Below are positions 18,099 to 64,000 of a stretch of DNA of 64,000 nt, one piece after another. The stretch lies in IMG/VR virus record IMGVR_UViG_3300035138_000081; one strand, written 5' to 3'. The position numbers and the translations under genes were made by a program. The notes under the pieces were generated by a model. That model ran no database searches and was not told the origin of the DNA. It saw only the letters and a list, made by a program, of their open reading frames with translations. This stretch comes from a virus. How positions within the stretch are numbered: the stretch's first letter is position 1; the number at the start of each line of letters is the position of its first letter.

Positions 18099-18143
18099 TA
18101 ATCTGCCTCCTTTTATTTTCTTATTTCTTATTTCTTATTATTT

Positions 18144-18355: not shown

Positions 18356-18402
18356 AAATTATATAAACCGGTTAATTTAAATCGACTATATCCATTAATA
18401 TT

Positions 18403-18699: not shown

Positions 18700-18790
18700 T
18701 ATTTTCACCCCCTGGGATTTTTTATTGACGGTATATATTATTGACGGGTGGGACCTATTTTTAAAAGGCCCCTTTACAATATACCCGGTG

Positions 18791-19896: not shown

Positions 19897-19945
19897 AAGA
19901 TATCCCCCTTTTAATTTAATGCGTTCTTAAGAATAGCAATAGCTG

Positions 19946-20200
19946 CTACCCATCGATGGTATTCATTAAATCTAATAAGTTTATATCCCCTTGCAAAGTA
20001 ATTACTGGTGCATCGCTTATATATTTGCCAGAGCTTATGCCTTCCCTGGGTATCTGCATTTTTAAATATTCTGCTCTTACCCTGCCAGAGCTTAATATTA
20101 ATTTATGTCCCCCATTGAATTTTAATATTACCCCTTCAGGATAATCCCCATTATTATTTTCTCTATATTCGCTTATATATGCCTTTAAAGTGTATGCCAT
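19946..20200 (-). CDS. hypothetical protein
   Basis: 84-aa ORF, co-directional. Confidence 0.5.
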   Translation of the reverse strand: MAYTLKAYISEYRENNNGDYPEGVILKFNGGHKLILSSGRVRAEYLKMQIPREGISSGKYISDAPVITLQGDINLLDLMNTIDG

Positions 20201-20361
20201 TTATATTTCCCCCTTTAGTTAATTTTTTATAATATTTTATTATAATATTATTATATATTATATTAATAAATTTATAAAAGCTTATATATCGGTTTTATAA
20301 TTAATTATGTTTATATATTATTAATATAATAATGAAAGCTTTAATTTTTATAATATTTTAT

Positions 20362-20799
20362 TTATTTTAAATGCTTTTCAGGATCCTTAGTCTCATCAGT
20401 TAACACAGTTATTATTGTACGCTCACGGCATAGATATTCTTCATTATTATAGCGAATCACGTTTGGTTCTGTTTGTGTTCCCCTAGAGGCATGTTCCAGC
20501 ATTTCGGCTTTAACAGCATCCATATCCATCTTAAGCACTCTGCTTAAATATCTTACTACTGCGTGATCAGATACCTCAACGTGTTCAGCCATTATACCTT
20601 CATTTGCTTGTGCCATAAGTATATACTTCTTATAGCGCATTGCTTCCTGATTGGCTTTAGCAATCTTTGCTGCTACAAGAGCTTTTTCATCTTTTAACTC
20701 TTGCATATATTGCATTATAGAATCCTGTGCATCTACTAACTCACGCAAAGTCATTTTTTCTAGCTGCGTATCTGCATATGGTACGTTTACTAAGTGCAT
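20362..20799 (-). CDS. hypothetical protein
   Basis: 145-aa ORF, first gene of the minus-strand block, with its own promoter. Confidence 0.55.
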   Translation of the reverse strand: MHLVNVPYADTQLEKMTLRELVDAQDSIMQYMQELKDEKALVAAKIAKANQEAMRYKKYILMAQANEGIMAEHVEVSDHAVVRYLSRVLKMDMDAVKAEMLEHASRGTQTEPNVIRYNNEEYLCRERTIITVLTDETKDPEKHLK

Positions 20800-20839
20800 A
20801 GTATTCCCTCCTTATATTTTATTAATATTTTATATTTAT

Positions 20840-20868
20840 ATTATATAATAAAATTTATAAAAAATAAA
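20840..20868 (-). promoter_or_regulatory. sigma-A/sigma-70-like promoter
   Basis: Minus strand: TTTATT, 17 nt, TATAAT. Confidence 0.45.
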
Positions 20869-21040
20869 TGAAAATATTAATAAATGAAGTATTTATTTAA
20901 TATATTTATATAATTGGAAATAATTAATTATAATTGCTTATAATAAGCTTAAATGCCATTTTATTTTATTATAAAGATATAATATAATATTATTATAATA
21001 ATTATAAAAAATTATTAAATATATTAAGGGGGAAAATACT

Positions 21041-21580
21041 ATGGCAAACACAAGGGAAAAACTGATGGCACGCTGGGACATCAAGGAACTGAACTATAAC
21101 ACACGCTGTAAAATAGCTGACATGTCTATATGGAAAGAATATGAAGAGGTTGCTAACTGTTACTTCTATAAAAGCAATGGCACAGCAAAGTTATTTGATG
21201 AGTATACAGCTATTGCTAGAAACAGAGTGCTAAACCATAAGAAATATATAAGAGTATTGGAAGGTTGCTATAATTACATGGAACAGAAATTTGAACGCTA
21301 TTGGGACTATAACTTAGATTTACATAAGTGGGATGACATTGTAGGTGCAATGAATAAATATCCTAAAGAAGTAGTATGGCACTGTCATATATTTAAAATA
21401 ATTTATAAAACTTGGGAAGGTAAATTCGTAGCACTCTTAAATACAGATGAGTGTAAAGATATAAGATTTGATGAAGCTATGGCAGCTAACTTAACACTAA
21501 TAACCCAAGCAATAGAAAACTGCAACATTACTTTAGCAAAGCACATTGGTAATAAGTGGATAAAAGGCATCGAAGGGTAA
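21041..21580 (+). CDS. hypothetical early protein
   Basis: 179-aa ORF with a GGGGGAAAA RBS. Confidence 0.6.
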   Translation: MANTREKLMARWDIKELNYNTRCKIADMSIWKEYEEVANCYFYKSNGTAKLFDEYTAIARNRVLNHKKYIRVLEGCYNYMEQKFERYWDYNLDLHKWDDIVGAMNKYPKEVVWHCHIFKIIYKTWEGKFVALLNTDECKDIRFDEAMAANLTLITQAIENCNITLAKHIGNKWIKGIEG

Positions 21581-21611
21581 ATAATTTTAAAAATCTAAGG
21601 AGGATACACAT

Positions 21612-21905
21612 ATGTATAGCTTTAAATTAAATTTAACACCAAGGGAAAACCGTGAATTGATAATAGACTTATTTAAAAGCCGTATTTTAAATAGCTTTGC
21701 TGCAAGTAAATATAAAGCAGCAAGACTTGAAGAACATTGTGAAAACAGAGATGAGTGGCCCTTTATTATAGAAACTTTAAAAGCTTTAAAAGCTGCAACA
21801 GAAGAAGATAAATGGGCAATAGAGATAGAGAAAAAAGCATATATCGCACATATAGATCATGCAATTAAGTGGGCGAAACATGTAAATGCAATCTTAAATG
21901 ATTAA
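21612..21905 (+). CDS. hypothetical early protein
   Basis: 97-aa ORF with an AAGGAGG RBS. Confidence 0.6.
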   Translation: MYSFKLNLTPRENRELIIDLFKSRILNSFAASKYKAARLEEHCENRDEWPFIIETLKALKAATEEDKWAIEIEKKAYIAHIDHAIKWAKHVNAILND

Positions 21906-21953
21906 TATAAAGGGATGCTATGCATCCCTAACATCTTTAAAGGAGGATGGATT

Positions 21954-22550
21954 ATGAAAGCTCAAGATTATGTTACTTATACTATCTCCCTATTGGAAAG
22001 AGCAGATGGTTTATCAAGAGAAGATAAATACATAATAGCTAATAAGCTTAGAAGATCCCAAATGGATTTGGACTCTTGCACAGCAGTATTAGGTATATTG
22101 CAAAGCATTGTTACAGAAGTGCAATATTATGCAGAAGATTTTAATAAAGCAGATGTTGCTAATACTATAGCAAACCTAAGAGATGTTCAGTCTCATTGGC
22201 AATCTCAAATGGATGCAATCCGCAAATTACCGCTAGAGGAAATTGAAAATACCCAAGGGGAAATTTTATTCTATGTGCTTTCTGTAGTAACTGACATAAC
22301 AGCATATTGCTATGGATATGATTCTGCAGAACAGATGACAGTTGACTTAAATATAGGTGCTGAAGAGCAAGTATTAGCATTGCCCGATGAGATTATATTA
22401 AACATGAGGCAAGCAATATTCACAGGCAAGGCTAGAGTAAAATGCATAGCAGAAAACAAAGCAATAAACATTATAGATGCAACAGTATATGCTTACCCAA
22501 TGAAGAAAAGAACTTTATATGTAGTACCAGCATATGACACTTTAGATTAA
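21954..22550 (+). CDS. hypothetical early protein
   Basis: Start set to ATG 21954, which follows an AAAGGAGG RBS. Confidence 0.6.
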   Translation: MKAQDYVTYTISLLERADGLSREDKYIIANKLRRSQMDLDSCTAVLGILQSIVTEVQYYAEDFNKADVANTIANLRDVQSHWQSQMDAIRKLPLEEIENTQGEILFYVLSVVTDITAYCYGYDSAEQMTVDLNIGAEEQVLALPDEIILNMRQAIFTGKARVKCIAENKAINIIDATVYAYPMKKRTLYVVPAYDTLD

Positions 22551-22574
22551 AATAAAACTTAGGAGGAATACCGT

Positions 22575-22724
22575 ATGGCATTATCATTATTAAAGAGTGC
22601 GTTAACAGAAGTTTACAGAGGTAAGAAAGATCAAGCATTAGAAAATCTATTGGGACTTACATTAAAATTAAATAATCTTTCCCTAGCGGTAATGGTGATA
22701 GATACCCGAACATATATAAAATAA
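22575..22724 (+). CDS. 49-aa hypothetical protein (below the ORF-track cutoff)
   Basis: AGGAGG RBS. Manual translation gives MALSLLKSALTEVYRGKK... Followed by a terminator. Confidence 0.45.
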   Translation: MALSLLKSALTEVYRGKKDQALENLLGLTLKLNNLSLAVMVIDTRTYIK

Positions 22725-22726
22725 AG

Positions 22727-22751
22727 AAAAGACCCATAGGGTCTTTTTTTT
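22727..22751 (+). terminator. rho-independent terminator
   Basis: AAAAGACCC, ATA loop, GGGTCTTTT, then a T-run. Confidence 0.75.
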
Positions 22752-22761
22752 ACCATAAAAT

Positions 22762-22782
22762 AAGAACCCCTTAGGGGTTCTT
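22762..22782. terminator. second hairpin between convergent genes
   Basis: AAGAACCCC, TTA loop, GGGGTTCTT. Confidence 0.6.
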
Positions 22783-22789
22783 ATTTTAT

Positions 22790-23383
22790 CTACCATTTAC
22801 ACTTTTGTTCCCATTGAGTTTTTCTTGCGGTAAACTTCTCAAAAGCAATTGCCCAGTAATCTAAGAACTCTGATGCTTCTACAAAAGTTAATTGCCTATG
22901 TGGTGCTCTTAAATCAAAGGCATTACATATTAAATTTACAAAGTTCATCTGTGCTGCACTGGCCATTCTTACTTTCTTACGTGCTTCCCTTTCTCTACGT
23001 GCTTTCTCTTCCCTTTCTCTTCTTTCTTGCTCTTCTCTTTGTCTTCGCCTTTGTGCCCATTCATGAAACATATTAAATGCAGAGTCTCCATAACCTCCAT
23101 TCATAAAGTCATCAAATTCATTTGCGCGATCATAGCTACTATAGCTATTAGAGTTCTTCTTATCTTCGTATGCTTTGCAATGTTGTGTATATAATGGACT
23201 TGAGTTATAGTTTGTTACATCATTACACGTAAAGCCTACATCTGCTTTCATTAATGTACTGACAATGCATTTCCATCTGTACTCTGCAGTTTCTTTTTCA
23301 CTTGATGTACCCCATAAGTACATCTTATAAACGTTCTTAGCTCTCCTAAATTTAGTTTGTACTGTTTTGCTATCCATAGTCAT
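22790..23383 (-). CDS. hypothetical protein with a charged RE-rich helix
   Basis: 197-aa ORF containing RRRQREEQERREREEKARREREARKK. Confidence 0.55.
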   Translation of the reverse strand: MTMDSKTVQTKFRRAKNVYKMYLWGTSSEKETAEYRWKCIVSTLMKADVGFTCNDVTNYNSSPLYTQHCKAYEDKKNSNSYSSYDRANEFDDFMNGGYGDSAFNMFHEWAQRRRQREEQERREREEKARREREARKKVRMASAAQMNFVNLICNAFDLRAPHRQLTFVEASEFLDYWAIAFEKFTARKTQWEQKCKW

Positions 23384-23386
23384 AAT

Positions 23387-23659
23387 CTACAGCCTCCTTA
23401 TTTTATTAAAAATTTCTCTATGCGATATATCGCCCTTCTCTAATATCTTCTCTGTCTCTTCTTCTGATAAACCTGCTACCTGTAATGAGTAACCTGCTAT
23501 CACGATAGGGTCTTCTTTTATAAAGCGTGAGTAAAAGTACCCACAATTCTTCCTAGCATCTAAAGCATTTTCTTCTGTAGTACACTTAACACAGTACCCT
23601 AACAGTGTACACTCTTTCCAATAGCCGCATATGCTATATGGCTGACCTATCTTGTGCAT
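23387..23659 (-). CDS. hypothetical Cys-containing protein
   Basis: 90-aa ORF, co-directional with the 22790 gene. Confidence 0.5.
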   Translation of the reverse strand: MHKIGQPYSICGYWKECTLLGYCVKCTTEENALDARKNCGYFYSRFIKEDPIVIAGYSLQVAGLSEEETEKILEKGDISHREIFNKIRRL

Positions 23660-23703
23660 TAGTATTCCCCCTTAGTATAATTTATTAAATATCTATATTA
23701 TAT

Positions 23704-23732
23704 ATTATATATTACTTTATTAAATAAATCAA
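23704..23732 (-). promoter_or_regulatory. sigma-A/sigma-70-like promoter
   Basis: Minus strand: TTGATT, 17 nt, TATAAT. Confidence 0.6.
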
Positions 23733-23750
23733 TATATTTTTAATAAATTA

Positions 23751-23882
23751 TTATTTTTCTTCTGTAGTTTCTTCAAAACCACAAGTTGGGCATTGCCTGA
23801 CAACTAATACGGTATCTTTATCTGGATGATTATACTCTCGTATTTTTACTAAGGTAGTACCATCATTTGGACATGTAGCCAT
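23751..23882 (-). CDS. 43-aa zinc-ribbon protein (below the ORF-track cutoff)
   Basis: Manual translation gives MATCPNDGTTLVKIREYNHPDKDTVLVVRQCPTCGFEE... Preceded by a GGAGG RBS. Confidence 0.45.
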   Translation of the reverse strand: MATCPNDGTTLVKIREYNHPDKDTVLVVRQCPTCGFEETTEEK

Positions 23883-23908
23883 CCTATCACCTCCTTACGT
23901 AAAAGTAT

Positions 23909-23937
23909 ATTATATGATATTTTAGTGTATAAATCAA
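23909..23937 (-). promoter_or_regulatory. sigma-A/sigma-70-like promoter
   Basis: Minus strand: TTGATT, 17 nt, TATAAT. Confidence 0.55.
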
Positions 23938-24005
23938 GAGGGTATATATAAATAAAATTATTAATATATTAATATAAAATTAATATATATTTTTATTAAA
24001 AACCC

Positions 24006-24034
24006 TTTATTTCCTTATTAAAATAATATATAAT
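24006..24034 (+). promoter_or_regulatory. sigma-A/sigma-70-like promoter
   Basis: TTTATT, 17 nt, TATAAT. Confidence 0.5.
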
Positions 24035-24093
24035 ATAATTATATTAATATTATAAATATTAATAAATAAATTATTTTTACAGGGGGAAATACT

Positions 24094-24318
24094 ATGGGTA
24101 ACACTACGGTAACACTAAGGGAAGTACAGGGTATAATTAACACTTTGGTAAAATATTACCTAACAGATAAGTGTACTATGGAAGAAGGGGGTATATTATT
24201 AACCCATATGGAAAAACTACAGAAACTTATGGATACTAAAGATAGTAACTCTATAGAATTACAAAACCAAAGGGATCTTATGGTAAAACTTTTAGGGGAT
24301 AAGGGGTTAACCATATAA
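24094..24318 (+). CDS. hypothetical early protein
   Basis: 74-aa ORF forming a single-gene unit with its own promoter and terminator. Confidence 0.6.
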   Translation: MGNTTVTLREVQGIINTLVKYYLTDKCTMEEGGILLTHMEKLQKLMDTKDSNSIELQNQRDLMVKLLGDKGLTI

Positions 24319-24336
24319 GGGATAATAAATAAATAT

Positions 24337-24374
24337 AAGTAAGGGGTATATACCCCTTACTTATTTTTTTTTTT
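24337..24374 (+). terminator. rho-independent terminator
   Basis: 12-bp stem AAGTAAGGGGTA/TACCCCTTACTT followed by a T-run. Confidence 0.85.
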
Positions 24375-24413
24375 AAATAATATAAAATTAATATATTTTT
24401 TATTAAAAATATA

Positions 24414-24442
24414 TTGATTTATTTATTAAAATACCTTATAAT
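24414..24442 (+). promoter_or_regulatory. sigma-A/sigma-70-like promoter
   Basis: TTGATT, 17 nt, TATAAT. Confidence 0.6.
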
Positions 24443-24496
24443 ATAATTATATTATTATTATTAATATATAAATATATTTTATAGGGGGAAATATTT

Positions 24497-24694
24497 ATGG
24501 ACACATTACAAAAGGCACTTAGGGAAATCTATGTTAAAGGTATAGACAGTGATACCGCAGTTAAGAAATATGGCCTTACAGAAGACGATTTGGTATACTT
24601 CTTCTTGGATGGTGACTTAAGTAATATCACTGATAGTAAACTAAGAGAAGCATTAGCAAAGAAACTTATGACATTTAGAGGTGAAAGGGGTTAA
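24497..24694 (+). CDS. hypothetical early protein
   Basis: 65-aa ORF with a GGGGGAAA RBS. Confidence 0.55.
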   Translation: MDTLQKALREIYVKGIDSDTAVKKYGLTEDDLVYFFLDGDLSNITDSKLREALAKKLMTFRGERG

Positions 24695-24698
24695 GATT

Positions 24699-24986
24699 AT
24701 GGACTGCAATGCACAGAATACTTTACTAGTGAAGGCTTATACCTTCACTGCTAAAACATTACCAAAGCAATTAGATACGGTAATGGCAGCAAAGAAAGAC
24801 TTTAAGGTTAATTGCTATGATGATGATACCTTACACATTCGCTTTGGAAGTAACAGCTTTGTACAGGCAGTATTAACACCACTTGGTAGATGGAGCGTAC
24901 TTATATATCATAACGGTTTTACTTACCAGGATGAGGGAAATGCAGAGCACTTAGGCTTACACCTACCATTTAATCAATCTTATTAG
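24699..24986 (+). CDS. hypothetical early protein
   Basis: Start set to ATG 24699, which follows an AAAGGGG RBS. Confidence 0.55.
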   Translation: MDCNAQNTLLVKAYTFTAKTLPKQLDTVMAAKKDFKVNCYDDDTLHIRFGSNSFVQAVLTPLGRWSVLIYHNGFTYQDEGNAEHLGLHLPFNQSY

Positions 24987-24998
24987 GGGGAATATATT

Positions 24999-25277
24999 AT
25001 GTGTAAAAAACTAATAGCAATGGCTAAGCTATTTAAACAGATGGAAAAGAAAGGGTTCATTACTGGACTCTCTCTAGATAAAATTATCTTAACTGATGAA
25101 TTCCATAAAGGTCATGGAAGTGTTAAGATTTGGGAAGGTACATATTGTGAACTATGGTACCTTGTAGAAAAGAATTGCTTTGTCACATGCAACTGTGATT
25201 TAAGTCATTTGGTAGAAGCATCTGCAATTGAGAGCAATATAAACTTATTATTAAAGCACTATATGGAGGAGATATAA
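24999..25277 (+). CDS. hypothetical early protein
   Basis: 92-aa ORF with a GGGGGAA RBS. Confidence 0.55.
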   Translation: MCKKLIAMAKLFKQMEKKGFITGLSLDKIILTDEFHKGHGSVKIWEGTYCELWYLVEKNCFVTCNCDLSHLVEASAIESNINLLLKHYMEEI

Positions 25278-25278
25278 T

Positions 25279-25767
25279 ATGACAAAAGCAGAAGATCCAT
25301 TCTTAAGAGAGAAACAAATGTTTCTGCAACAGTGCAAGATAGAAATCTGCAAGAAAGTTAAGAAAGCGGGTTTCATATCTAAGCAGATAAATTATAAGAT
25401 TCCTAAACCGACAGAAGTTTGGGAAATCTTAAACACAGATTTATACACTTTAGTATATACACCCGAAAGAGGTGTAATCTTAAATATTAAAGGGGCATGT
25501 GTAGATGAAATAGTTAAAAAGCAGATAGATAGCTTATACCATATCGCTAACAGCTTTAACAGAAAGACAGAGGCATTAGCTACAGTGTATGATGGATACT
25601 GTGATGTATTTAACACTAAAGGTCAAATACTTCGTCAGGAACCTTTGTTTAAAACAGTAGCTTCTCTAGCGGCAAATAACAATTCTCACAAAATAGATAA
25701 ACTTTTACAAGGAGAAACAATTCAAGTTGGTGTAGGGCGTTATAAAAGATCGTTTCCAGATGAATAA
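25279..25767 (+). CDS. hypothetical early protein
   Basis: 162-aa ORF with a GGAGGAG RBS. Confidence 0.6.
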   Translation: MTKAEDPFLREKQMFLQQCKIEICKKVKKAGFISKQINYKIPKPTEVWEILNTDLYTLVYTPERGVILNIKGACVDEIVKKQIDSLYHIANSFNRKTEALATVYDGYCDVFNTKGQILRQEPLFKTVASLAANNNSHKIDKLLQGETIQVGVGRYKRSFPDE

Positions 25768-25838: not shown

Positions 25839-25867
25839 TTGATTTTCTAACCAAAATATTATATAAT
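25839..25867 (+). promoter_or_regulatory. sigma-A/sigma-70-like promoter that leads into ORF-free DNA
   Basis: TTGATT, 17 nt, TATAAT. No ORF of 60 aa or more on either strand for the next 2.2 kb. Confidence 0.6.
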
Positions 25868-25873
25868 ATATTT

Positions 25874-27808
25874 AATATATAATATAGGAAGTACTATTAC
25901 TAAGCAGGTTGAAATACTTGTAACAGTAAGAAGAATGGAACCTATGTTGTAGAAGTGCACAAACGTGAGATGCATCAAAGCCTTAGAAAAGCTTTGTAAC
26001 ATTGATTTAAAGAGAGTGGAACTGTTAGTTAGCTCGCACGTAGACTTATGTAAAATAGTTGTCCGAAGGGACCGAAGAACATTACACCATCAAGATCCTA
26101 AGGGGATTTAATTGTAGTAACATCTCTGTGTGAAAAGCAGAGAATCACTTGCAAATACATTGCAATATGCTTAGATAAAGAACAGTGCACGATCGATGAG
26201 AGATATTGAAATGAAAGGGTGAAACTCCCTTGGTAAAAGTAGATATCAAGCAACTATAGAAAATATGTCGAGTACGGAATTATTATATAGAGCTTTTATA
26301 CCAAGACGCTACTTTATAACTAGGTTAAAGCTTAAGGGTAGGCTAGGGTATATCAATTAATTGATGAAGGTTCTGAAGCTCAAGAAAGGGATAGGTCAAT
26401 AACAAACTATTGAGAATTTAATAAGGATATAATATTACCCAAGTAGATCCAAAAGAGGTCCAGGGAAATAGAATATCTTTAGAAAATTTAATATAGTGAG
26501 GATCTTGAACGGAGTATTGAAGGGGGGGAAACTTCTGTAACTAAGATCGGTTGTAAGATGAGTAACTTATAGTGAAAACTTACGATAGCGGGAAGGGATT
26601 GTTGATATTACTTAATGCGAACCAGGAGGTTGGTAGCCAACGAAGTTCGCAAACGAAAATGGGAATGCCGAATAGTTTTTCAAAGCTTAGAGAAAGCGAA
26701 ACGAGAAAAGCAGCTTTAATAAAAATATAAAGAGGCCAATGGAGCATATAAAAGTTCATCTCTCGTGTGAATAGGAGTAAGCAGAGAATCTTCCTGATAA
26801 AAGGTTCTAGAGATAGACCGTGCTAGCAATAGAATTATTGGGGTGTGCATTGTATATAGCTATTTAGATTGAGGCTTACGCTGTCACAAAGCGTAAGGGG
26901 AAACTCTCTAAGATGAAAAAGCTGAAACTAGGGAGGATGCATTATTTAAGACAGGTACTTTCCAATACCGAAAGCTTTAGAAGTTGTAAAGCCTTAAAGA
27001 CAGATGCCAATTCTTATTTAGAACTTAATAGAAGTAGGCTATAGGGATTGTTTATTGAACAGTGGGTATGTTTGCAGTTTGAATAAAACTAAGGAGTGAA
27101 ACTTAGCAAAGTTCAAAAACATATTAGATATAAACAACTAAGTACCTTTCTATACTTAGGATTGATATAGTTTAAGCTTCTAAAGAGTTACAGGTAAGTC
27201 TTAAATACCATGTTAGCGTTGTAACTATGCAGTATAGAATGACCCTTACGCACTTACAAAAAGTGTAAAAGCATAATTAAGTTTATGTAGAGGCTATCTT
27301 ACCTTAGCAGTTAAAGCAAAGCTGCATGTAAGGGATAGCATATATGATTAATAAGCTCTAACGCTACAGAAAACTGTTGAATCATATATGTAGTTGAATA
27401 TATTAGCATAGACAAGTTGATATAGTAACCAACAGTTATCTTATATATGAAGAGGACTTACACACACATAGTCTAGTGATACTTAAAAATTATTGTAGAA
27501 CTCTAGCGCTAAGGGTTATCCAATACAAAATTTTTATTAGGTGTATAGTCTTTTACATTTAGCATGTATATATATCTATAAAGCTCCTCCTATAACAGAA
27601 CACTCTTTGTATTTACTTATAAATAATTAATAACTACTTACGCTTAAGCACAATAACCGCTAGAGAAACCCTATGCTGTTTTTTTGTGTTAAGTTGTATT
27701 AAGCAAGTTTACCCAACACAGTAACATATATAAACACTATAGCGTAAAGTTTTTACGTATTTAGTGCCTATTAAATAATTAATAGGCCATACCCTAGGTA
27801 TTTTTTTA
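25874..27808 (+). ncRNA. candidate large structured non-coding RNA (about 1.9 kb)
   Basis: Sits between a consensus promoter and a hairpin plus T-run. All three stop codons are frequent in every frame. G+C is visibly higher than in the spacers. Many stems of 7-11 bp (26617-26650, 26875-26897, 27089-27106, 27293-27339, 27340-27389). Confidence 0.35.
27789..27808 (+). terminator. short hairpin plus T7
   Basis: ATACC, CTA loop, GGTAT, then TTTTTTT. The stem is only 5 bp. Confidence 0.35.
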
Positions 27809-28306
27809 AATTATTTTTTTATTTTTTTTTTTATTTTTTTTTTTAACCCTTTGCCGCTAGAGGATTGGTTTATTACCTTGCCTTTAGTGTTACTTTGTAG
27901 GTATTAATTTTTTATTAAATTTTTGGGTTTTTGCTGATAGAGGGGGATATAAATTAAATTTTTTTTTTGGAAAAAATAAATTATATCTCATTGGTATAAA
28001 AAACATATATATATATATATGCGATCGAATATATTGGGAGTCCCATTTTCCATTAGTAAGTTATTATTAATATATTATTAATATATTATATCTTTAAATA
28101 TATGGTATATACTGTAGTATACTCCAATATTCTCCATTTTTTAGATTTATATTCCTACATATATACATACCTATTCCATATCATTTATAGGACATATTCC
28201 GAGGAGCTATACTTTATTTTTCCCAATATTTTTTTTTTATATATAACCCCAAAAATTCCGCCAAACCCAAAAACCACCCAAAATTCAAGATACCGTCACC
28301 CAATTA

Positions 28307-28336
28307 ATAAAAAGGAAATAGTTCCTCTAGCGGAAA
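28307..28336 (+). repeat. 30-nt exact repeat, copy 1
   Basis: ATAAAAAGGAAATAGTTCCTCTAGCGGAAA is identical to 42403-42432. Confidence 0.85.
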
Positions 28337-28359
28337 GAGCCAGGAACACCACAGAAAAA

Positions 28360-28527
28360 TAATAATAATTATAAAAGAAAATTATTATTATTATAAATCA
28401 TTATAAATAATAATTATTTAATAATTAAATAATTAATAATTAATAATTAAATAATTATTAAATAATAATTAATTAATAATTAAACAATTATTAAATAATA
28501 ATAATTAAAATTAATAATTAATTAATA
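28360..28527. repeat. nearly pure A/T block of AATTATTAAATAAT-type repeats
   Basis: Tandem and inverted A/T-only repeats with almost no G or C. Confidence 0.8.
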
Positions 28528-28724
28528 GCTAAGGATAACAGAGAAGAGCACCTGCTTAGATAAGACTGCTAACTTACTGCTAAGGGTAAACCTATTCCCT
28601 AGAGGAAACTTGCACCCCCTATAGAAACAGACTACCCCTGTGAATTGTTACCCGGTGGTAAAATATTAAGCAGGTGACAAAATTTTAGGGTGTGGGCGAT
28701 TTTAGGAATCCCCGTATATTTTAA

Positions 28725-28804
28725 ACCGGATGGATAAAAATAAAGGAACCGAACCGAACCGACGAAAAAACCCTAAATACGAAGGGATACCGGATGGATA
28801 AAAA
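28725..28804 (+). repeat. direct repeats ACCGGATGGATAAAAA x2 flanking (GAACC)x3
   Basis: 16-mers at 28725-28740 and 28789-28804, with GAACCGAACCGAACCGA between them. Confidence 0.7.
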
Positions 28805-29210
28805 ATAAAAATAAAAACCAATTTTAAATATAAAAACCGAAATTATTTACCGTACGTTCTTGCGCAACCTCAAACACCCAAGTGGGCGAGAACCATGCAG
28901 ACTTAACCAAAATGGAGTCAATTCCTTTAGCGGTAAGTCTGCTTGTTGATGTTGTAATTCCTCAAGAGGGGAACTGTGAAGAAGGAATTGTTACTGACTG
29001 TTTTGAGTTTCCGACTCTTGAGGGGTAGTGTTGGGTTATTGGGAGGGAAGGGGTTTGGAGGTGAGAATGCTTGAGGCGACAAGTTTGGTTACCGAATCAA
29101 AAGATTGATTTCTGCGAAGAAGTGTTTTACCGCGAAACCGAAAATTTTTGAAATTTCGCAAGTTTTCCCGTTTGGTTGGTTTCCTTCCGGTTACTCGATC
29201 CGTTCAGGCG

Positions 29211-29235
29211 TTTTATGTTTGAAAATCATCACGGG
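29211..29235 (+). repeat. 25-nt conserved box, copy B
   Basis: TTTTATGTTTGAAAATCATCACGGG matches 19268-19292 at 23 of 25 positions. Confidence 0.6.
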
Positions 29236-29336
29236 AGGGTACGCGTTCAAAATTCCCTAGGGGGTTAACTACTATAAAAATTTAGGTTAGTTTTTCTCGC
29301 GCCCAAAAAAAATTTTATGTGCGACGGCTCAGGGAC

Positions 29337-29387
29337 GCATAAAGTACTGGGGCTCCGTATAAAGTACTGGGACCCCGTATAAATTTA
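29337..29387 (+). repeat. about 20-nt direct repeats, 2.5 copies
   Basis: CGCATAAAGTACTGGGGCT, CCGTATAAAGTACTGGGACC, CCGTATAAATTT. Confidence 0.7.
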
Positions 29388-29795
29388 AATAAAAAAAAAA
29401 TAATTATAAATTATAATTATTATAATTTATAATTATTTTTTTATTTAATTATTAAAATTAAAAAGAATTATATATTTTAATATTTATAATTTATAATATT
29501 TATCATTTATTATAATTATATTTTTTAATATTTATAATAAATGATAATTATAATTTATAATTATTAAAATTTTTAATAAATATAAAAATATAAAAAAATT
29601 TTTAAATTTTTAAAATTTTATATAAATTAGAGTATTTATTAATAAATTAATAATATATTAATATAATCTAATATAATTCCCTTATATAATATTTTATTAA
29701 TTTTATAATATATTATATAATATTATTATATTAATAATATATAATATATTATATTATATTATTATATTATTATATTATTAATAAATAATATAATA
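29388..29795. repeat. nearly pure A/T palindromic/tandem repeat block
   Basis: Long A/T palindromes, for example TAATTATAAATTATAATTATTATAATTTATAATTA near 29401-29440. Confidence 0.75.
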
Positions 29796-29809
29796 AAGGG
29801 GAAATAAAA

Positions 29810-30463
29810 ATGGGTAAAACTACAAATACCATAACTAAAACTGGGGATAATAACAATAATAATACTAATACTATAGGGGGGGATAATAATTTAAATAATT
29901 TAATTATTAATAATTTAAATAATACTTTAAATAAAACTAATAATTTAAATATTAATAATTTATTTTTTAATAATATTAATATAATTAATAATTTAAATTT
30001 TAATAATTTAAATAATTTAATTATTTTAAATAATAATAATTTTAAAATAGAATTATTAAATAATAATTTAATTATATTATTAAAAAATTATAATTTAAAT
30101 AATTATAATAATTATATTAATTTACAAAAATTATATTTAAATTTAAATAATTTTAATATTTTTTATAATATTATTATTAATAATTTAAATTTAAAAAATA
30201 TAATAATTAAAAAATATAATTTAAATAATAATAATATTAATTTTTTAAATATATATAACTTTATTTATATATTTAAATCTTCTAATTTAAATAATAAAAT
30301 AAATAATTTTTTATTAAATTTAAATAATATTATAAATAATAATAATTTAAATATTTTAAATATTAATACATTTAATAATAAAGAATATAAATTATTAGAA
30401 GATTTAAATATTATATCCCATAATATTAAATATAGTATAAATATTAATAATAATAATATTTAA
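29810..30463 (+). CDS. Asn/Ile/Leu-rich low-complexity ORF (coding status uncertain)
   Basis: 217 stop-free codons in roughly 95% A/T DNA. Has an AAAGGGGAAATAAAA-ATG RBS like the early genes. The normal-looking N-terminus MGKTTNTITKTGDNN is followed by NNLNNL-type repeats. Confidence 0.4.
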   Translation: MGKTTNTITKTGDNNNNNTNTIGGDNNLNNLIINNLNNTLNKTNNLNINNLFFNNINIINNLNFNNLNNLIILNNNNFKIELLNNNLIILLKNYNLNNYNNYINLQKLYLNLNNFNIFYNIIINNLNLKNIIIKKYNLNNNNINFLNIYNFIYIFKSSNLNNKINNFLLNLNNIINNNNLNILNINTFNNKEYKLLEDLNIISHNIKYSININNNNI

Positions 30464-31190
30464 AAAATTTAATAATTATATTATTTAATTAATTTATTTA
30501 ATAATTATAAATTATAATTATAATTTATAATTATTATTTTTTATAATTTTTTAATTAAATTTTTTAATTATTAAATTTTTTAATTATTAAATTTAATAAT
30601 TAAATTTTTTAATAATTAAATTTTTTAATACCCGGAGATTTTTAATAATTAAATTTTTTAATTATTAGGGCCCCAAATATTTTTGCCCCATAATAATTAA
30701 ATTTTTTAATTAAATTTTTTAATTATTTGGACCCAAAATTATTATGAGGCATAATAATTAAATTTTTTAATATTTTTTTAATGGGGGAAATAAACCCGGT
30801 ATTTTGCCCCGGTTATATAACCCCGTTTATATACCCGGCTATATATACGGGCTATATTAAGGCTGCTATTAATATTATTAATTTATTATTATTAATATAT
30901 TAATAATATTAATAATAATATTAATATTATTAATATATTATATATTATAATAATTATATTATTTAATTATTATTATAATTAATAATTAAATATAATAATT
31001 ATTTAATTAATATATAATAATAATTATATAATATAATAATTAAATAATATAATAATTAAAAAATATAATTATTATATTATTTAATTATATTTTTTAATTA
31101 TTATTTTTTAAAATTATTAAATTTTTTAATTATTAAATTTTTTAATAATTAAATTTTTTAATAATTAAATTTTAAAATATTTTGCCCTGC
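30464..31190. repeat. A/T repeat block (AATTAAATTTTTTAAT units) with embedded G/C islands
   Basis: Repeated AATTAAATTTTTTAATTATT units interrupted by short islands such as ACCCGGAG, GGGCCCC, GGACCC. Confidence 0.75.
30795..30860 (+). repeat. iteron-like tandem repeats CCCGG(Y)TATATA, 4-5 copies
   Basis: CCCGGTATTTTG, CCCCGGTTATATAA, CCCCGTTTATATA, CCCGGCTATATATA, CGGGCTATATTA. Confidence 0.65.
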
Positions 31191-31346
31191 GGCGGTAAAA
31201 TACTCGAGGCGTTTATACTTCCCCCGCTTAATCTCTTCTCCCCCCAAATAGACCTTGACTCTTTTTGCTCAAGCCAAGACGTGGCTCAAGCCAAGCTTTA
31301 TATAAACCAGTTTTTAACCGAATAAAAAATCAACGGTTGAATAAAT

Positions 31347-31427
31347 ATACGAAAGGATTATTTTAATTGGTTTATATCCATTATATATAAAACCATCAAT
31401 TTGGTTCCTTGTTCCCCTAGCGGCTAT
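31347..31427 (+). promoter_or_regulatory. composite intergenic element, copy E2
   Basis: ATACGAAAGG, then TATATCCATTATATATAA, then TTCCCCTAGCGGC. Same order as copy E3. Confidence 0.3.
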
Positions 31428-31502
31428 CTTGCGTGCAAACAAAAACCGAAACACGAGCACCTAAAAAAATTTTATAAAAAAAAATAAAATTTAGTAAAAA
31501 CA

Positions 31503-56743: not shown

Positions 56744-57487
56744 ATGTCGTATTCAAAATATTTAGTTTGTTTAGATGGAGGTCACGGAGAGAATACAGGT
56801 GGTAAGAGAACACCTACTATGCCAGATGGTTCCGTGATCAAAGAAAATCAATTTAATGATGATGTCATAGCATTAATGAAAAAGCATTTAGAATACTTAG
56901 GTTTTACAGTATTAGATGTTGCACCTGAAACAAATGATACTTCATTATCAACAAGAATTTCAAGAGCAAATGCTAGGTATAAATCTTTTAGTTTAACAAC
57001 AGCAATCTATGTAAGTATTCACTATGATGCTTACACAGGCTCATTCGATAGTTGTAAAGGTGGTAATTCTATCTTTTACTATCCTGGATCTATTAAAGGA
57101 AAGAAACTTGCAACTGCAATTTATAAATATTTAGTCCAAGGCACTGAACAAGCATCTAGAGGTGTTAAAACTGCGAACTACTATGTACTAAGAAAAACTG
57201 CAATGCCAGCAGTACTTTCAGAAAATGGTTTTATGGATGTACTTGCAGAAGCAAAGTTAATGCTTAATGAAGACTTCCAAAAAGAAGTTAGTAATGAACA
57301 CGTAAAAGGAATTTGCAAGTACTTTGGATTAACCTATAAAGCATATTCCTCTAGCGGTACTACCTCAACAAGTAGTTCAAGTACATATAAAGTTCAAGCA
57401 GGTTCATTTGCAAGTAAAACTAATGCAAAAAACTTAGTAAGAGAACTTAAGAAAGATGGATATTCCGCTTTCTATTATAAAGACTAA
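56744..57487 (+). CDS. N-acetylmuramoyl-L-alanine amidase endolysin with SPOR domain
   Basis: Amidase_3 motifs LDGGHGENTGGKR, SIHYDA, SENGFMD. C-terminal SPOR-like YKVQAGSFASKTNAKNLVRELKKDGYSAFY. Confidence 0.85.
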   Translation: MSYSKYLVCLDGGHGENTGGKRTPTMPDGSVIKENQFNDDVIALMKKHLEYLGFTVLDVAPETNDTSLSTRISRANARYKSFSLTTAIYVSIHYDAYTGSFDSCKGGNSIFYYPGSIKGKKLATAIYKYLVQGTEQASRGVKTANYYVLRKTAMPAVLSENGFMDVLAEAKLMLNEDFQKEVSNEHVKGICKYFGLTYKAYSSSGTTSTSSSSTYKVQAGSFASKTNAKNLVRELKKDGYSAFYYKD

Positions 57488-57519: not shown

Positions 57520-57548
57520 TTGAATTTTATATAAAAATATTATATAAT
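57520..57548 (+). promoter_or_regulatory. sigma-A/sigma-70-like promoter that leads into ORF-free DNA
   Basis: TTGAAT, 17 nt, TATAAT. Confidence 0.55.
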
Positions 57549-57676
57549 ATATTTATAAATTATTTAAAAAATATTTATATTCATTAAATACTAGCATTGC
57601 AAGATTGTATTGTTTTGAGAAAAAGCTTTTAAATTTCATAGTTGTCCTTTGATGAGGATTGTAATTTATTTTATAC

Positions 57677-58271
57677 GGAAAGCTGTTGAAACAGCTTTCC
57701 TTAAACCCTCAAGAGAGAAATTAAAAATGCTTAGAAAATAATAAATTGTTTCAAGAAAATTTTTTGTTCCAATTAGTATTAGGAAAGCTTATGTGGTAAA
57801 GCTTTCCTTAAAGCCTCAAAAGAGTACACTAAGTACTTCCCTAATAAAATAAAGTTGAAATAATTAACAAATCAAGGAAAGCTTCCCCTATATAGAGCTT
57901 TCCTTAAACCCTCAAATAAAAGATTTAATGTTTTAAATCTAAATAATCTATTTTTAATATTAAAGGTTTTAATTACCAAGCAACAAGCTATATTTGACAA
58001 TATTAACTTTAAAAAGAGTACAGTGTTTACCTAAAACTATAGTCCATAAAGTTTTAGAAAAGGAAAGCTATAAAGAGCATAGCTTTCCTTAAACCCTCGA
58101 ATTTATGTTTTTTCTTTTTATTTTTTTTTATTTTTATTAATTGGAAGTAAATGGTTTCATTATATTCTTTCATAAGTAATTTTGGTATTTAGGAGTTGTA
58201 CATTCAATTAAATCAATTAGAATTCTTCTGGCATAGGAAAGCTAACGGAATAGCTTTCCTTAAGCCCTCAA
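57677..58271 (+). repeat. five copies of GGAAAGCTN-loop-NAGCTTTCC + TTAAACCCTCAA
   Basis: Copies at 57677-57712, 57782-57819, 57876-57915, 58062-58100 and 58236-58271. The ninth stem pair changes in a compensatory way (G-C, T-A, A-T, A-T). Loops are 6-12 nt and unrelated to each other. Confidence 0.8.
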
Positions 58272-58343
58272 ATCAAAATTTACAATATTCAATTTTTACC
58301 ATAATCCAAAATTTAAACAAGATAAGTATTTTAACTTTTGACA

Positions 58344-58368
58344 AGTGCCTCCAAGGTACTTTTTTTTT
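58344..58368 (+). terminator. rho-independent terminator
   Basis: AGTGCCT, CCA loop, AGGTACT (one G-U pair), then T9. Confidence 0.6.
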
Positions 58369-58528
58369 GAATATGCGGTAAAATACCTAATTTTAAATAT
58401 TTATTTTATATATTTTTATAAAAATTAACGATTTAAATACGGAAATACCCCTTTTAAAAATTTGGCGAATATAATTACGTTGGCCAAATTAAATCATTTT
58501 ATTTTCGATTTTACTTAAAGCATGCAAA

Positions 58529-58560
58529 TACCGCTAGAGGAAAGAGATTCCTTAGCGGTA
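58529..58560. repeat. inverted pair of the TAGCGG word forming a 13-bp hairpin
   Basis: TACCGCTAGAGGAA, AGAGA, TTCCTTAGCGGTA. Confidence 0.8.
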
Positions 58561-58571
58561 AATGCTAAATT

Positions 58572-58940
58572 TTATTCTGCCTTAACTTTATTTATTCGAA
58601 CTTCAAAATCATCAAATGTTGAAAAGATTGAAGTATCGATTCCAAAAATCCAAAAGTTATCTGGTTCTAGAATTGTTTTACGTTCATTTATTTCTGTACC
58701 TATAATCTCTCCATTTCTATAAAACAAGATAGATATTCTTATGTATCTAAGATTTTCATCTGAAACATTTTCTACTGCAGTAACTAAGTATTCCTCTTCT
58801 TCATCATATTCAGTTGTACAAATTTCTGCCTTACCACTTTTATCTTCTTTTAAAAATACATCATTATTTAATTTGCTATATAAACTAGCTACGCTTATAA
58901 CTATTACCAAAAACCCAATTGTACTAAATGCTCTTTTCAT
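58572..58940 (-). CDS. membrane-anchored protein
   Basis: 122 aa with N-terminal TM segment TIGFLVIVISVASLY. Confidence 0.55.
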   Translation of the reverse strand: MKRAFSTIGFLVIVISVASLYSKLNNDVFLKEDKSGKAEICTTEYDEEEEYLVTAVENVSDENLRYIRISILFYRNGEIIGTEINERKTILEPDNFWIFGIDTSIFSTFDDFEVRINKVKAE

Positions 58941-60720: not shown

Positions 60721-60997
60721 CCTTTCTGCTGTAAGTGTATTCTACTTGTTGTTGGAAGAAGTATCTAATGTCTTCATCTCTAAGGCCTGATAGTTCTGAC
60801 AAGGATTGTAAGCCTTGTTCAGATGCTCTATAGAGTTCTTCTTGTATACCAAATTTCTTACTAGCATCTTCAATCGTCCAACCCAACTTCTCGCGTTGCA
60901 ACTGACACCATTTACCGAATTGTAATAATCGTTGAGATTTTGTAGATTTGTTGCTTTTTGCAAGGCGAAATCCCACTCTGTATTCTCCATCTGGCAT
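60662..60997 (-). CDS. HTH (XRE-like) protein
   Basis: LGWTIEDASKKFGIQEELYRASEQG is helix-turn-helix-like. Confidence 0.45.
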   Translation of the reverse strand: MPDGEYRVGFRLAKSNKSTKSQRLLQFGKWCQLQREKLGWTIEDASKKFGIQEELYRASEQGLQSLSELSGLRDEDIRYFFQQQVEYTYSRKDDIDEFTRKLYYNSGLEKE

Positions 60998-61218
60998 GTT
61001 GGTTCACCATTTCCTTTCTTCATATTAGCTAGCTTTCTTTCAGTTGTCATTTCTTCTAAGTTGTATTTTTTTAAAAGTTCATAATATTCCTTACAAAAAT
61101 TTGTACATTGATCTTCTTTTAAATGAATATCTCCTTGTAATGTCATTGTACGAGTATGTTCTGCTTTATCTGTAAGTGTTAGCTCATTTAACTTTATATA
61201 GTCTAATAAATTAGTCAT
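60742..61218 (-). CDS. hypothetical protein; C-terminal 85 codons overlap the HTH gene
   Basis: 158-aa ORF. Only the first 73 or so codons are free of overlap. Confidence 0.35.
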   Translation of the reverse strand: MTNLLDYIKLNELTLTDKAEHTRTMTLQGDIHLKEDQCTNFCKEYYELLKKYNLEEMTTERKLANMKKGNGEPTCQMENTEWDFALQKATNLQNLNDYYNSVNGVSCNARSWVGRLKMLVRNLVYKKNSIEHLNKAYNPCQNYQALEMKTLDTSSNNK

Positions 61219-62908: not shown

Positions 62909-62937
62909 TTGATTTTTAATAAGAAATATCATATAAT
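62909..62937 (+). promoter_or_regulatory. sigma-A/sigma-70-like promoter
   Basis: TTGATT, 17 nt, TATAAT. Confidence 0.6.
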
Positions 62938-62976
62938 ATAATTAATAAAAATTATTTAATTAAAAAGGAGATAACT

Positions 62977-63504
62977 ATGAAAAAAGCAATTTGTGGAATA
63001 TGCAACAAAGAATTCGAAGATGATGGCAGCTCTAAATTTTGCTTTCACTGTGGTACTAAATTTTGTTCAGAAGAATGTCAATTAGAAGCAGGATTAAGTT
63101 TTGATTATGATGGAGATGTATTAATGTGCAAGATTTGTGAAGGGGTGTTTGATGAAAGTGATGGACTTATGTTAAATTTTCCAAATGAGAGTAAAGTTGA
63201 AAAAAGATATGATGAACTATATAAAAAAGCACAAACAGAAAAATTGAGTGTGGAAGAAACTGAAGAATTAGTAGATTGCTACGAACAAATATTTGAAAAC
63301 ATAAATCAAAAATATTATTTTATAAAAGACCTTCAAGATACAGACAATGAAGAGTGTGATAATGCAGTATTGAAAGATCAACTTTTACAAATGAAAATGC
63401 AAAGAGATTTTATGGAGCATCAACTTCAAGAAGCAAAAAGAGTAGTGCATAAATTGAAAAATCCTTCTTTGTTTAAAAGAATTTTGAATAGGCTATTTCC
63501 TTAA
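62977..63504 (+). CDS. zinc-ribbon plus coiled-coil protein
   Basis: 175 aa with CGICN..CFHCG..CKICEG and a helical C-terminus. Confidence 0.55.
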   Translation: MKKAICGICNKEFEDDGSSKFCFHCGTKFCSEECQLEAGLSFDYDGDVLMCKICEGVFDESDGLMLNFPNESKVEKRYDELYKKAQTEKLSVEETEELVDCYEQIFENINQKYYFIKDLQDTDNEECDNAVLKDQLLQMKMQRDFMEHQLQEAKRVVHKLKNPSLFKRILNRLFP

Positions 63505-63512
63505 AAATTATC

Positions 63513-63550
63513 AAAAAAAAAGGAGCTTTGATAGCTCTTTTTTTTTATTT
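63513..63550. terminator. bidirectional terminator between convergent genes
   Basis: A-run, GGAGCT, loop, AGCTCT, T-run. Confidence 0.6.
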
Positions 63551-63883
63551 TGGAATTTGCAATTTGTCAAACTTTTCAATATACTTTTCCTTAGCGGCAA
63601 TCCATAGCCCGCTTTCAGTTTGTTTTATTCCTGCAAGGTTTCCATAGCTAGTACCAACTTCTGCATCTATTGTAAATTTGATATCTGATTCTAATGGTTG
63701 ACGTTCCATTACTTCTTTTATAACATTCATTACTTCATGGAAACAAGATTTATGTATTTCAAATGTTATACTATCATGTACCGTAAACAGTATTCGTGCA
63801 TATTTTTTATAATATGCTTTAAAATGTCGATGCAATGTTGATAAAGCTGTTAAAGTAATTTGTGCAGCGGTCCCTTGTATCAT
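63545..63883 (-). CDS. family A DNA polymerase, C-terminal exon/fragment
   Basis: IQGTAAQ (Pol I has PMQGTAADI) and motif C FTVHDSITFE. The ORF opens exactly at the IQGTAA box with no RBS. Confidence 0.75.
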   Translation of the reverse strand: MIQGTAAQITLTALSTLHRHFKAYYKKYARILFTVHDSITFEIHKSCFHEVMNVIKEVMERQPLESDIKFTIDAEVGTSYGNLAGIKQTESGLWIAAKEKYIEKFDKLQIPK

Positions 63884-64000
63884 TAATTGATAATGGACTA
63901 TATCATGAACCTATAAACTTATGTAGGTCCCTTTGCGCTTCGGTTTCCCTACTCTACTCAGTTATTCATATCAGATACGTCTGATACTATCCTTTCGATA
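63884..64000 (-). other. intervening sequence interrupting the polymerase gene (candidate group I intron 3' part)
   Basis: In-frame TAG 10 codons upstream of the fragment. G/C-richer hairpins on the minus strand: TATCAGA-CGTA-TCTGATA and GTAGG..CCTAC. Confidence 0.35.

Follow-up and report, generated by a model that had tools for sequence, protein, structure and literature searches.

Five hairpin-and-tail modules between converging phage operons: a candidate multivalent protein-binding RNA

The locus considered here lies in a 64,000-nucleotide stretch of viral DNA (IMG/VR record IMGVR_UViG_3300035138_000081; the whole stretch is called the window), which represents nearly the whole genome of a previously unseen phage of ~67 kb. 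Just 3' of the lysis genes, the + strand of this phage carries five copies of one module, consisting of the arm (A)GGAAAGCT, a variable loop, the arm AGCTTTCC and a C-rich tail TTAARSCCTCRA. The locus raises the questions of what keeps such an array in place, whether it works as RNA or as DNA, and whether it has a specific partner. The answer put forward below, plausible without being probable, is that the array may be a multivalent protein-binding RNA, acting either as a decoy (sponge) or as a processing precursor. The elements of the array unit are the following:

57520..57555, + strand: promoter of the array unit, TTGAAT-17 nt-TATAAT and a conserved extension; detected both in the sigma-70 scan (57520-57548) and as a family match
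57556..57676, + strand: leader before module 1, AU-rich, z = 0.06, no open reading frame (ORF)
57677..57712, + strand: module 1, 10-bp hairpin, UGAA loop, tail TTAAACCCTCAA, -17.3 kcal/mol, z = -5.1
57782..57819, + strand: module 2, 9-bp core (10 bp with the outer A-U), 8-nt loop, tail TTAAAGCCTCAA, z = -2.8
57876..57915, + strand: module 3, 8-bp core plus U·G, 10-nt loop, tail TTAAACCCTCAA, z = -3.9
58062..58100, + strand: module 4, 10-bp core, 7-nt loop, tail TTAAACCCTCGA, then a long T-rich run, z = -3.8
58236..58271, + strand: module 5, 9-bp core, 6-nt loop, tail TTAAGCCCTCAA, z = -4.7
58343..58368, + strand: intrinsic terminator closing the array, 8-bp stem and T9 (reported by the scan as 58343-58361)
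58535..58565, - strand: terminator hairpin ACCGCTAAGGAA...TTCCTCTAGCGGT of the converging minus-strand operon, read from the sequence

A search for GGAAAGCT-N(6-16)-AGCTTTCC returned five matches, all on the + strand and inside 57677-58259, and none in shuffled sequences (n = 100); these are the same five positions at which the initial annotation had placed the modules. The hairpins span 57677-57700, 57782-57807, 57876-57903, 58062-58088 and 58236-58259, with an arm gap of N(8-12). The 3' arm together with the tail, AGCTTTCCTTAARSCCTCRA, occurs in the whole window at these five sites alone, even when three mismatches are allowed (0.02 expected), and a covariance model derived from the five copies recovers, with filters off, just these five in 64 kb, the palindromic stems giving weak minus-strand echoes in the same run. 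The modules are thereby statistically real and lie on one strand. Their starts are separated by 107, 96, 185 and 171 nt, showing no helical phasing. The intervening spacers, described earlier as unrelated sequences of 56-146 nt, measure 69, 56, 146 and 135 nt and are indeed unrelated to one another; considered as guides or antisense RNAs, they have no significant match to the remainder of the phage.

Alignment of the five copies leaves three blocks of invariant columns, the A/C-GGAAAGCT arm, the AGCTTTCC arm and TTAA..CCTC.A, while loops and flanks are unrelated. The 8-bp stem core and 12-nt tail reported as conserved are thus confirmed, the stem being invariant and the tail (UUAARSCCUCRA as RNA consensus) invariant or nearly so. 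The tetranucleotide TCAA, replaced by TCGA in module 4, starts 9 nt past the stem foot in all five modules, and the 4 nt on the 5' side of the foot vary (ATAC, ATTA, TCAA, AAAA, CATA). No module stem contains a bulged base, and an outer A-U pair lengthens the stem in four of the five. Counted on stems of 9 bp, the loops measure 6, 8, 10, 9 and 6 nt, which corrects the values of 6, 7, 12, 9 and 6 nt given previously; counting the extra pairs of the predicted fold, they measure 4, 8, 10, 7 and 6 nt. Because stem and tail were both kept while the loops (in length and sequence) and the spacers diverged fully, purifying selection on stem and tail is indicated.

The compensatory change claimed for the ninth base pair stands in part. 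Eight core pairs are identical in all five modules and the ninth alone varies, reading G-C, U-A, U·G, A-U and A-U in modules 1-5; it therefore stays paired throughout, but module 3 has a wobble, and the evidence comes from a single column whose covariation score is reached by 19 of 500 shuffles. In total, 98% of the alignment cells are paired and the variable column shows four pair types (AU twice, GC, UA, UG). The covariation is formally true and of low statistical weight. A hairpin is better supported by the variable distance at which the invariant arms are held: they are identical while the distance between them ranges from 8 to 12 nt. Since, in addition, the U·G of module 3 pairs on the + strand alone and the array has its own promoter and terminator, a hairpin of RNA or single-stranded DNA is favoured. 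The initial proposal of selection on a single-strand hairpin, probably RNA, and not on a dimeric double-stranded operator of fixed spacing is supported by these three features. An iteron origin or a dimeric operator was rejected in the same way, as neither the arm gap of 8-12 nt nor the module spacing is fixed or phased.

The promoter and terminator that had been said to bracket the modules were both recovered by scanning. The sigma-70 scan by itself has little meaning in AT-rich DNA, as it gave 17 sites against 17.7 expected. In addition, the array promoter belongs, without a mismatch, to a 36-nt family, TTGANTT-N7-AAAATAWTATATAATATATTTA (consensus also written TTGAtTT-N7-AAAATAwTATATAATATAtTTA), for which the window holds eight sites against none expected. 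The starts of the main transcription units coincide with these sites, each of which is correctly oriented:

8866: before the gene at 8838 (-)
23902, - strand: before the leftward of the divergent early units
24006, + strand: before the rightward of the divergent early units
25839: before a second ORF-free unit
31503: before the late operon
56387: before the lysis cassette
57520: before the array
62909: before a free-standing + strand gene in the polymerase region

The terminator at the other end of the array would serve + strand transcripts only, because it has no T-run on the minus strand. The single ORF of at least 60 amino acids in the unit (58196-58381, 61 amino acids, TTG start) is unlikely to be translated, as its AGGAG abuts the TTG without a spacer. 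By these sequence criteria the array is a predicted dedicated + strand transcription unit with a promoter and a terminator of its own. Neither sequence inspection nor the terminator scan revealed a terminator between the endolysin stop codon (57487) and the array, so that late read-through would also cross it. The hairpin that ends the converging operon lies directly after the stop codon of a gene of 122 amino acids (58572-58940, -).

The modules themselves could have been ordinary terminators, an alternative set out in advance as a refutation. Four of the five are not terminators, as they have no T-run; the modules are followed by UUAAACCCUC, and the T-run behind module 4 begins only 17 nt past its stem (58106). 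As no U-run stands directly after the hairpins and the scan reports 58343-58361 alone within the unit, this candidate was rejected. The scans likewise detected no promoter or terminator belonging to a single module.

These features also bear on a passive or selfish role, in which the modules would be REP/MITE-like palindromes, or hairpins stabilising or insulating a 3' end, kept uniform by gene conversion and having no specific partner. Hairpins can shield upstream mRNA from 3' exonucleases; the array is located where the late/lysis transcript has its 3' end, between converging operons, and the module size of ~40 nt is near that of a REP element. However, the 12-nt single-stranded tail is kept as strictly as the stem, which would be needless for a stabiliser or insulator, and gene conversion would have homogenised the loops as well. 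Moreover, copies are found nowhere else in the phage or in the searched collections, unlike those of dispersed REP/MITE families, and the lack of a T-run in four of the five modules counts against termination. Such a role is considered improbable.

In silico folding predicts each module as a hairpin of 9-12 bp (-13 to -18 kcal/mol, z from -2.8 to -5.1). In all modules the predicted fold leaves the tail mostly unpaired; its CUC is taken into a weak 3-bp CUC/GAG hairpin in modules 1 and 2, and in module 5 its GCC pairs with an upstream GGC. No significant structure is predicted for the AU-rich leader and spacers 1, 3 and 4 (z from +0.2 to -1.2), and spacer 2 (z -2.4) and the last, terminator-containing segment (z -1.8) are weakly structured. 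Coding of small peptides, promoters of individual modules, a minus-strand promoter or terminator reading, loop-tail pseudoknots and box C/D features were also considered and rejected, none being consistent across the five copies.

The single-stranded, C-rich tails recall another suggestion of the initial annotation, that of an anti-Shine-Dalgarno set of small RNAs (sRNAs). Host RNases would trim the transcript to five hairpin-protected RNAs, whose CCCUC tails would repress host or phage mRNAs through their G-rich Shine-Dalgarno regions. The RoxS/RsaE- and LhrC-type sRNAs of Firmicutes have C-rich seeds and repress mRNAs at these regions. Every fold leaves the C-rich tails mostly unpaired, and CCCTC is uncommon in the phage (13 in + strand bins over 1-62,080, five of them being the module tails). 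The AU-rich spacers would suit RNases as substrates, and the tail pairs with the GGGGG ribosome-binding sites (RBSs) of early genes at about -8.7 kcal/mol, similarly to the 16S anti-Shine-Dalgarno sequence at the same sites. The pairing is, however, no longer than ~5-6 nt at any phage initiation region, with a mean of -6.3 kcal/mol against -11.3 kcal/mol for ribosome binding; at the GGGGG/GAGG sites of the phage it covers ~5 nt, no better than background. There is no extended complement of the tail in the phage, and the lone 9-nt match of the module 2 tail, to a 1.9-kb unit at 26868, is within chance. The suggestion also leaves the invariant stem unexplained, as any stable hairpin would suffice, and the modules lack promoters and terminators of their own. 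On these grounds we consider the sRNA suggestion clearly unlikely. As a separate observation on translation initiation in this phage, a subset of small genes, presumably early ones (19648-25277, 60742-61218), use the unusual RBS A(A/G)GGGGGAA(A)TA-N-ATG, and the late genes use AAGGAGGTGA.

The reading preferred here, a multivalent protein-binding RNA, would operate as follows. Host RNA polymerase would start at the promoter (57520-57555) and stop at the terminator (58343-58368), yielding a + strand RNA of ~810 nt, to which read-through from the holin/endolysin operon may add. Five stable hairpins would stand out from an otherwise AU-rich and mostly unstructured RNA, all having the same 8-bp stem, a free-form loop and the same single-stranded 3' tail. 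Each stem with its tail would form one binding site, and perhaps also a cleavage site. One and the same sequence-specific hairpin-binding protein would dock at all five, recognising the stem and 3' flank and not the loop. The transcript would then be a five-valent platform, either titrating the protein or being cut into small RNAs. We infer all three steps, namely action as RNA, protein binding and its consequence, from the sequence. Among the ideas offered initially, the decoy or sponge fits best; no partner protein was found among the ~75 ORFs of the window and the 2.9 kb beyond it.

By mode of action, the array resembles multi-site protein-titrating RNAs and the repeats recognised by Cas6, and by analogy it may be rated among phage or bacterial RNAs with repeated protein-binding hairpins. 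It fits none of the tested families, as CRISPR/Racr, ToxI, IS200/IS605-REP, Csr/Rsm, terminators, Y RNA and iterons each fail in at least one defining feature. The likeness to CsrB/RsmY/RsmZ is functional only and consists of an own promoter and terminator, a repeated short structured motif and unrelated linkers. The Csr/Rsm sponges, however, show GGA in their loops, whereas the array conserves the stem and the 3' single-stranded tail; GGA occurs in the loop of module 5 alone, and the conserved GGA sits inside the stem. There is neither a sequence relation nor an Rfam match to this group. Type III toxin-antitoxin RNAs (ToxI/CptI-like) have linker-free repeats, arranged head to tail beside the gene of a ToxN-family endoribonuclease; this class was rejected because 56-146 nt of unrelated sequence separate the modules and there is no ToxN-like gene.

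The layout of hairpin and handle had also suggested a Cas6-type repeat or RNA anti-CRISPR (Racr). As a special case of a decoy, the stem-loop with the 8-nt handle UUAAACCC would soak up Cas6 or Cascade subunits, as Racrs do. Cas6-family and similar proteins recognise an RNA stem with its 3' flank, and type I-E/I-F repeats consist of a hairpin followed by a handle of ~8 nt. The array has the same order of hairpin and ~8-nt A/C-rich handle, and it lies in an accessory region, beside a Sie-like superinfection-exclusion gene. With Racrs it shares the stem-loop, the short conserved handle, the phage origin, a strong upstream promoter and the lack of cas genes nearby (PMC10651486). In contrast to Racrs and CRISPR repeats, its loops vary in both length and sequence among copies, its spacers are unequal (56-146 nt), it has five copies instead of a solitary one, and it bears no similarity to known repeats, which is the property by which Racrs are defined (PMC10651486). 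A CRISPR array has repeats identical including the loop and uniform spacers of ~25-50 nt; here the loops are 4-10 nt and the spacers 69/56/146/135. The best Rfam match of this kind, CRISPR-DR52, has E = 4.1 and falls on the minus strand inside spacer 1, so that Rfam shows no CRISPR-DR similarity. In one genome each of 185,579 species, which may not cover a private repeat of the host, the exact hairpin pattern occurs neither in repeated copies nor with the tail, and nothing matching is present in IMG/VR or the JGI metagenome contigs. Pfam detects no Cas domain among the ~75 ORFs of the phage. The CRISPR-mimic idea is accordingly disfavoured and, of all the explanations weighed here, appears the most remote.

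The eight stem pairs that never vary, together with the position of the array in the genome, call for a different alternative, an element acting at the DNA level. In contigs of the same samples, an HNH gene and the main PolA gene bridge the end of the window and its start, the longest contig of this phage being 66.9 kb, and the genome is therefore circular or circularly permuted. The array stands at the meeting point of a rightward unit (24.0 to 58.4 kb) and a leftward unit (from 23.9 kb via the wrap-around to 58.57 kb). At this convergence of the genome halves the modules might be DNA hairpins, extruded or single-stranded, or asymmetric sites of ~20 bp (AGCTTTCCTTAAACCCTCAA). Possible roles include fork pausing or termination, lagging-strand priming, recombination or resolution, and cutting by an HUH-type nuclease at a fixed distance 3' of the hairpin. 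In a circular or circularly permuted genome of 66.9 kb, the array start at 57.5 kb is nearly antipodal to the divergent promoters at 23.9/24.0 kb (23.95 + 33.45 = 57.4 kb) and coincides with the maximum of the cumulative GC skew; all eight stem pairs are invariant in sequence, and the surroundings are AT-rich (GC 0.21-0.28).

The TCAA found 9 nt past the stem foot (TCGA in module 4) recalls the right end of IS608, in which the TCAA cleaved by TnpA lies 10 nt 3' of the hairpin foot (PMC3201880). The array shares with IS200/IS605 right ends and REP elements the hairpin, the tetranucleotide at a fixed short 3' offset and the placement of all copies on one strand (PMC3201880). It differs from them in having no Y1 transposase, no conserved guide tetranucleotide and no stem bulge, and in being clustered within 0.7 kb; membership of IS200/IS605-REP was therefore rejected, as there is no RAYT/Y1 cognate, no copy outside 57677-58271 and no conservation of the guide. 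Against a DNA role in general, no Y1/HUH transposase, integrase, Rep or relaxase domain was found in the ~75 ORFs or the 2.9 kb beyond the window, and the 4 nt 5' of the foot, which guide IS608 cleavage, are not conserved. The switch of gene orientation fully accounts for the skew maximum, a promoter and terminator would be needless for a pure DNA site, the five sites share one orientation with spacing that is not helically phased, and the more typical origin candidate, the AT-rich repeats at 28-31.5 kb, is not antipodal to the array. A DNA element is for these reasons rather unlikely; if the modules do act as DNA at the convergence of the genome halves, they would form an unusual terminus-type element of a phage.

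Whether the array has relatives was addressed by database searches. At gathering cut-offs, Rfam gave no match for the whole window, and nothing meaningful for the array region at E up to 10. BLAST of the array against INPHARED phages and PLSDB plasmids gave no match either. Exact-pattern scans returned one chance hairpin without the tail in IMG/VR, none in the JGI metagenome contigs, and 37 lone hairpins in GTDB (one genome per species, 185,579 species), none of which has a CCTC tail or stands in an array. Three further contigs of the same phage are 100% identical over the array and consequently supply no variation. Relatives were gathered through the tail protein, the endolysin and a tail-fibre profile. 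The nearest non-self matches in protein databases share ~43% (tail protein) and 46-53% (endolysin) identity, the fetched relative loci being more distant at 26-35% and the tail-fibre relatives at 26-34%. In the 22 loci inspected (L053-L074), no recurrent hairpin family was observed. The covariance model that had been recommended, run on the phage and these relatives, finds the five source copies alone and nothing in the 22 loci. Lack of module conservation in related phages had been named as a refutation, and all 22 related loci are without the array. The array is thus an orphan of a single phage lineage without comparative support, and phylogenetic covariation is not available because no homologous array exists in the searched databases or relatives.

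One relative, locus L054, carries a different array at the corresponding place. Its endolysin gene is followed by an ORF-free stretch of 1.5 kb that contains, along with two tRNA-Met genes, a tandem set of five modules, TAAGAGTTACTTC...CTCTTnnCGATTTTCTC (L054:15860-16540). Three of the five contain tRNA-like segments, resembling a T-arm (GAGTTCGAGTCTC) or an anticodon arm (CTGGGGAAACCCA). A Ro60 gene (TROVE+vWA) lies ~0.7 kb downstream of the modules, beyond three small ORFs, and further tRNAs follow downstream (15140-18770). In this locus Rfam calls the tRNAs alone and not the five modules, which we take to be Y-RNA-like by comparison with bacterial YrlA RNAs. Both arrays are ORF-free, are placed after the endolysin, and consist of five tandem modules with a conserved stem and 3' segment around a variable interior. 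The modules of L054 differ in sequence, enclose tRNA-like inserts and lie near Ro60, whereas the phage described here has no Ro60, and the covariance model R2 built from its array has no match in L054. Membership of the Y RNA/Ro60 group was rejected for the array, which has no tRNA-like parts and no accompanying Ro60 gene; TROVE has no match in the window ORFs or in the remaining 2.9 kb, that is, across 66.9 kb. The Y-RNA-like modules at a syntenic place suggest that this phage group uses the locus for arrays of RNA modules that bind proteins.

Several results weigh against the preferred reading of a protein-binding RNA. A homologous array was found in no searched database or relative; the covariation within the genome depends on one base pair, and the eight perfectly kept stem pairs would also be compatible with recognition of DNA. 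Pfam and PHROGs searches of the ~75 ORFs revealed no Cas6, RNA-binding, Ro60 or ToxN-like domain, and the 2.9 kb beyond the window hold just an HNH endonuclease and DNA polymerase A. The binding partner may be encoded by the host. In this more specific form, which seems to us unlikely though worth stating, the array would be a new type of RNA device for counter-defence or takeover, a five-valent decoy that sequesters, or is processed by, a hairpin-specific RNA-binding protein of the host outside the known CRISPR components. Candidate targets include a defence-system nuclease or a global RNA regulator. The accessory-gene neighbourhood, including the Sie-like protein, would, as a conjecture, fit a takeover or anti-defence role.

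Phage mimicry RNAs (pseudo-ToxI, Racrs, tRNA and Y-RNA sets) form a small, growing class of takeover and anti-defence tools, and a decoy of a host protein, if true, would extend this mimicry beyond CRISPR-repeat and ToxI mimics. The array unit is tractable, as its promoter and terminator are defined and its five near-identical modules of 36-40 nt can be synthesised as bait. Should a specific partner be found, protein and RNA would constitute a new recognition pair, and the partner might be a host target not previously known for phage RNA decoys.

The phage is best explained as virulent-type, with a low-GC Gram-positive host. Its endolysin lies next to the array, as do genes for membrane or Sie-like proteins. 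The genes are arranged in two blocks:

35825 to tail proteins, rightward block: terminase (35825), portal (39458), protease, major head protein (43953), tape measure (49462), tail proteins
56474: putative holin, 77 amino acids, assigned by position alone, without a family match
56744-57487, rightward block: endolysin, Amidase_3+SPOR
leftward block: primase-helicase, helicases, exonuclease, FolE/QueD/QueE/Gat-QueC, RNase H, Sie-like protein, DNA polymerase A

The minus strand at 52-5382 encodes a 7-deazaguanine DNA-modification set, comprising a Gat-QueC fusion, a dATP/dGTP diphosphohydrolase-like protein, GTP cyclohydrolase I, a radical-SAM QueE-like protein and PTPS/QueD; its presence makes it probable that the phage DNA is modified at G. 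DNA polymerase A is split into a C-terminal piece of 112 amino acids (63545-63883) and a UDG-exo-PolA gene of 773 amino acids, with an HNH_3 endonuclease gene between them (62909-64000; L075:2138-6002). Beside the split gene, a + strand gene of 175 amino acids (62977-63504) with its own family promoter is inserted. At 14654-16413 (-), seven successive genes of 71-83 amino acids suggest a tandem paralogous family; four of them (14654-15876) have weak coiled-coil-type Pfam matches alone.

Further non-coding features were noted. The second ORF-free unit, 25839-27850 (+) and ~1.9 kb long, starts at a zero-mismatch family promoter (25839) and ends at a hairpin with a very long T-run (~27770-27850); its GC content is normal for the phage. 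It has no ORF of at least 60 amino acids, no Rfam match and no meaningful match in phage BLAST, and it contains many GNRA-type hairpins, e.g. GGGTGAAACTCCC at 26218 and GGGGAAACTCTC at 26898. On this basis it is a candidate large structured RNA, and a second likely unit of this kind would make the phage rich in uncharacterised RNA biology. The adjoining region 27900-31500 is extremely AT-rich, its GC content falling to 0.17, and contains long inverted repeats as well as AT repeats with a 16-nt period. Its GC-richer islands (28530-29380) have short direct repeats, among them two copies of CG(C/T)ATAAAGTACTGGG(G/A)C(T/C)C at 29336 and two of ACCGGATGGATAAAAA at 28725. This region may be an origin or packaging region, and the ORF of 217 amino acids at 29810-30463, within low-complexity DNA, is probably not a gene. 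Finally, one motif, CCGCTAGAG(G/A), is found repeatedly where transcription units end, at 25768, 27657, 27854, 28326 (reverse complement) and 58543. It immediately follows the stop codon of the gene 25279-25767, occurs close to where the 1.9-kb unit ends, and forms part of the terminator hairpin that lies beyond the array.

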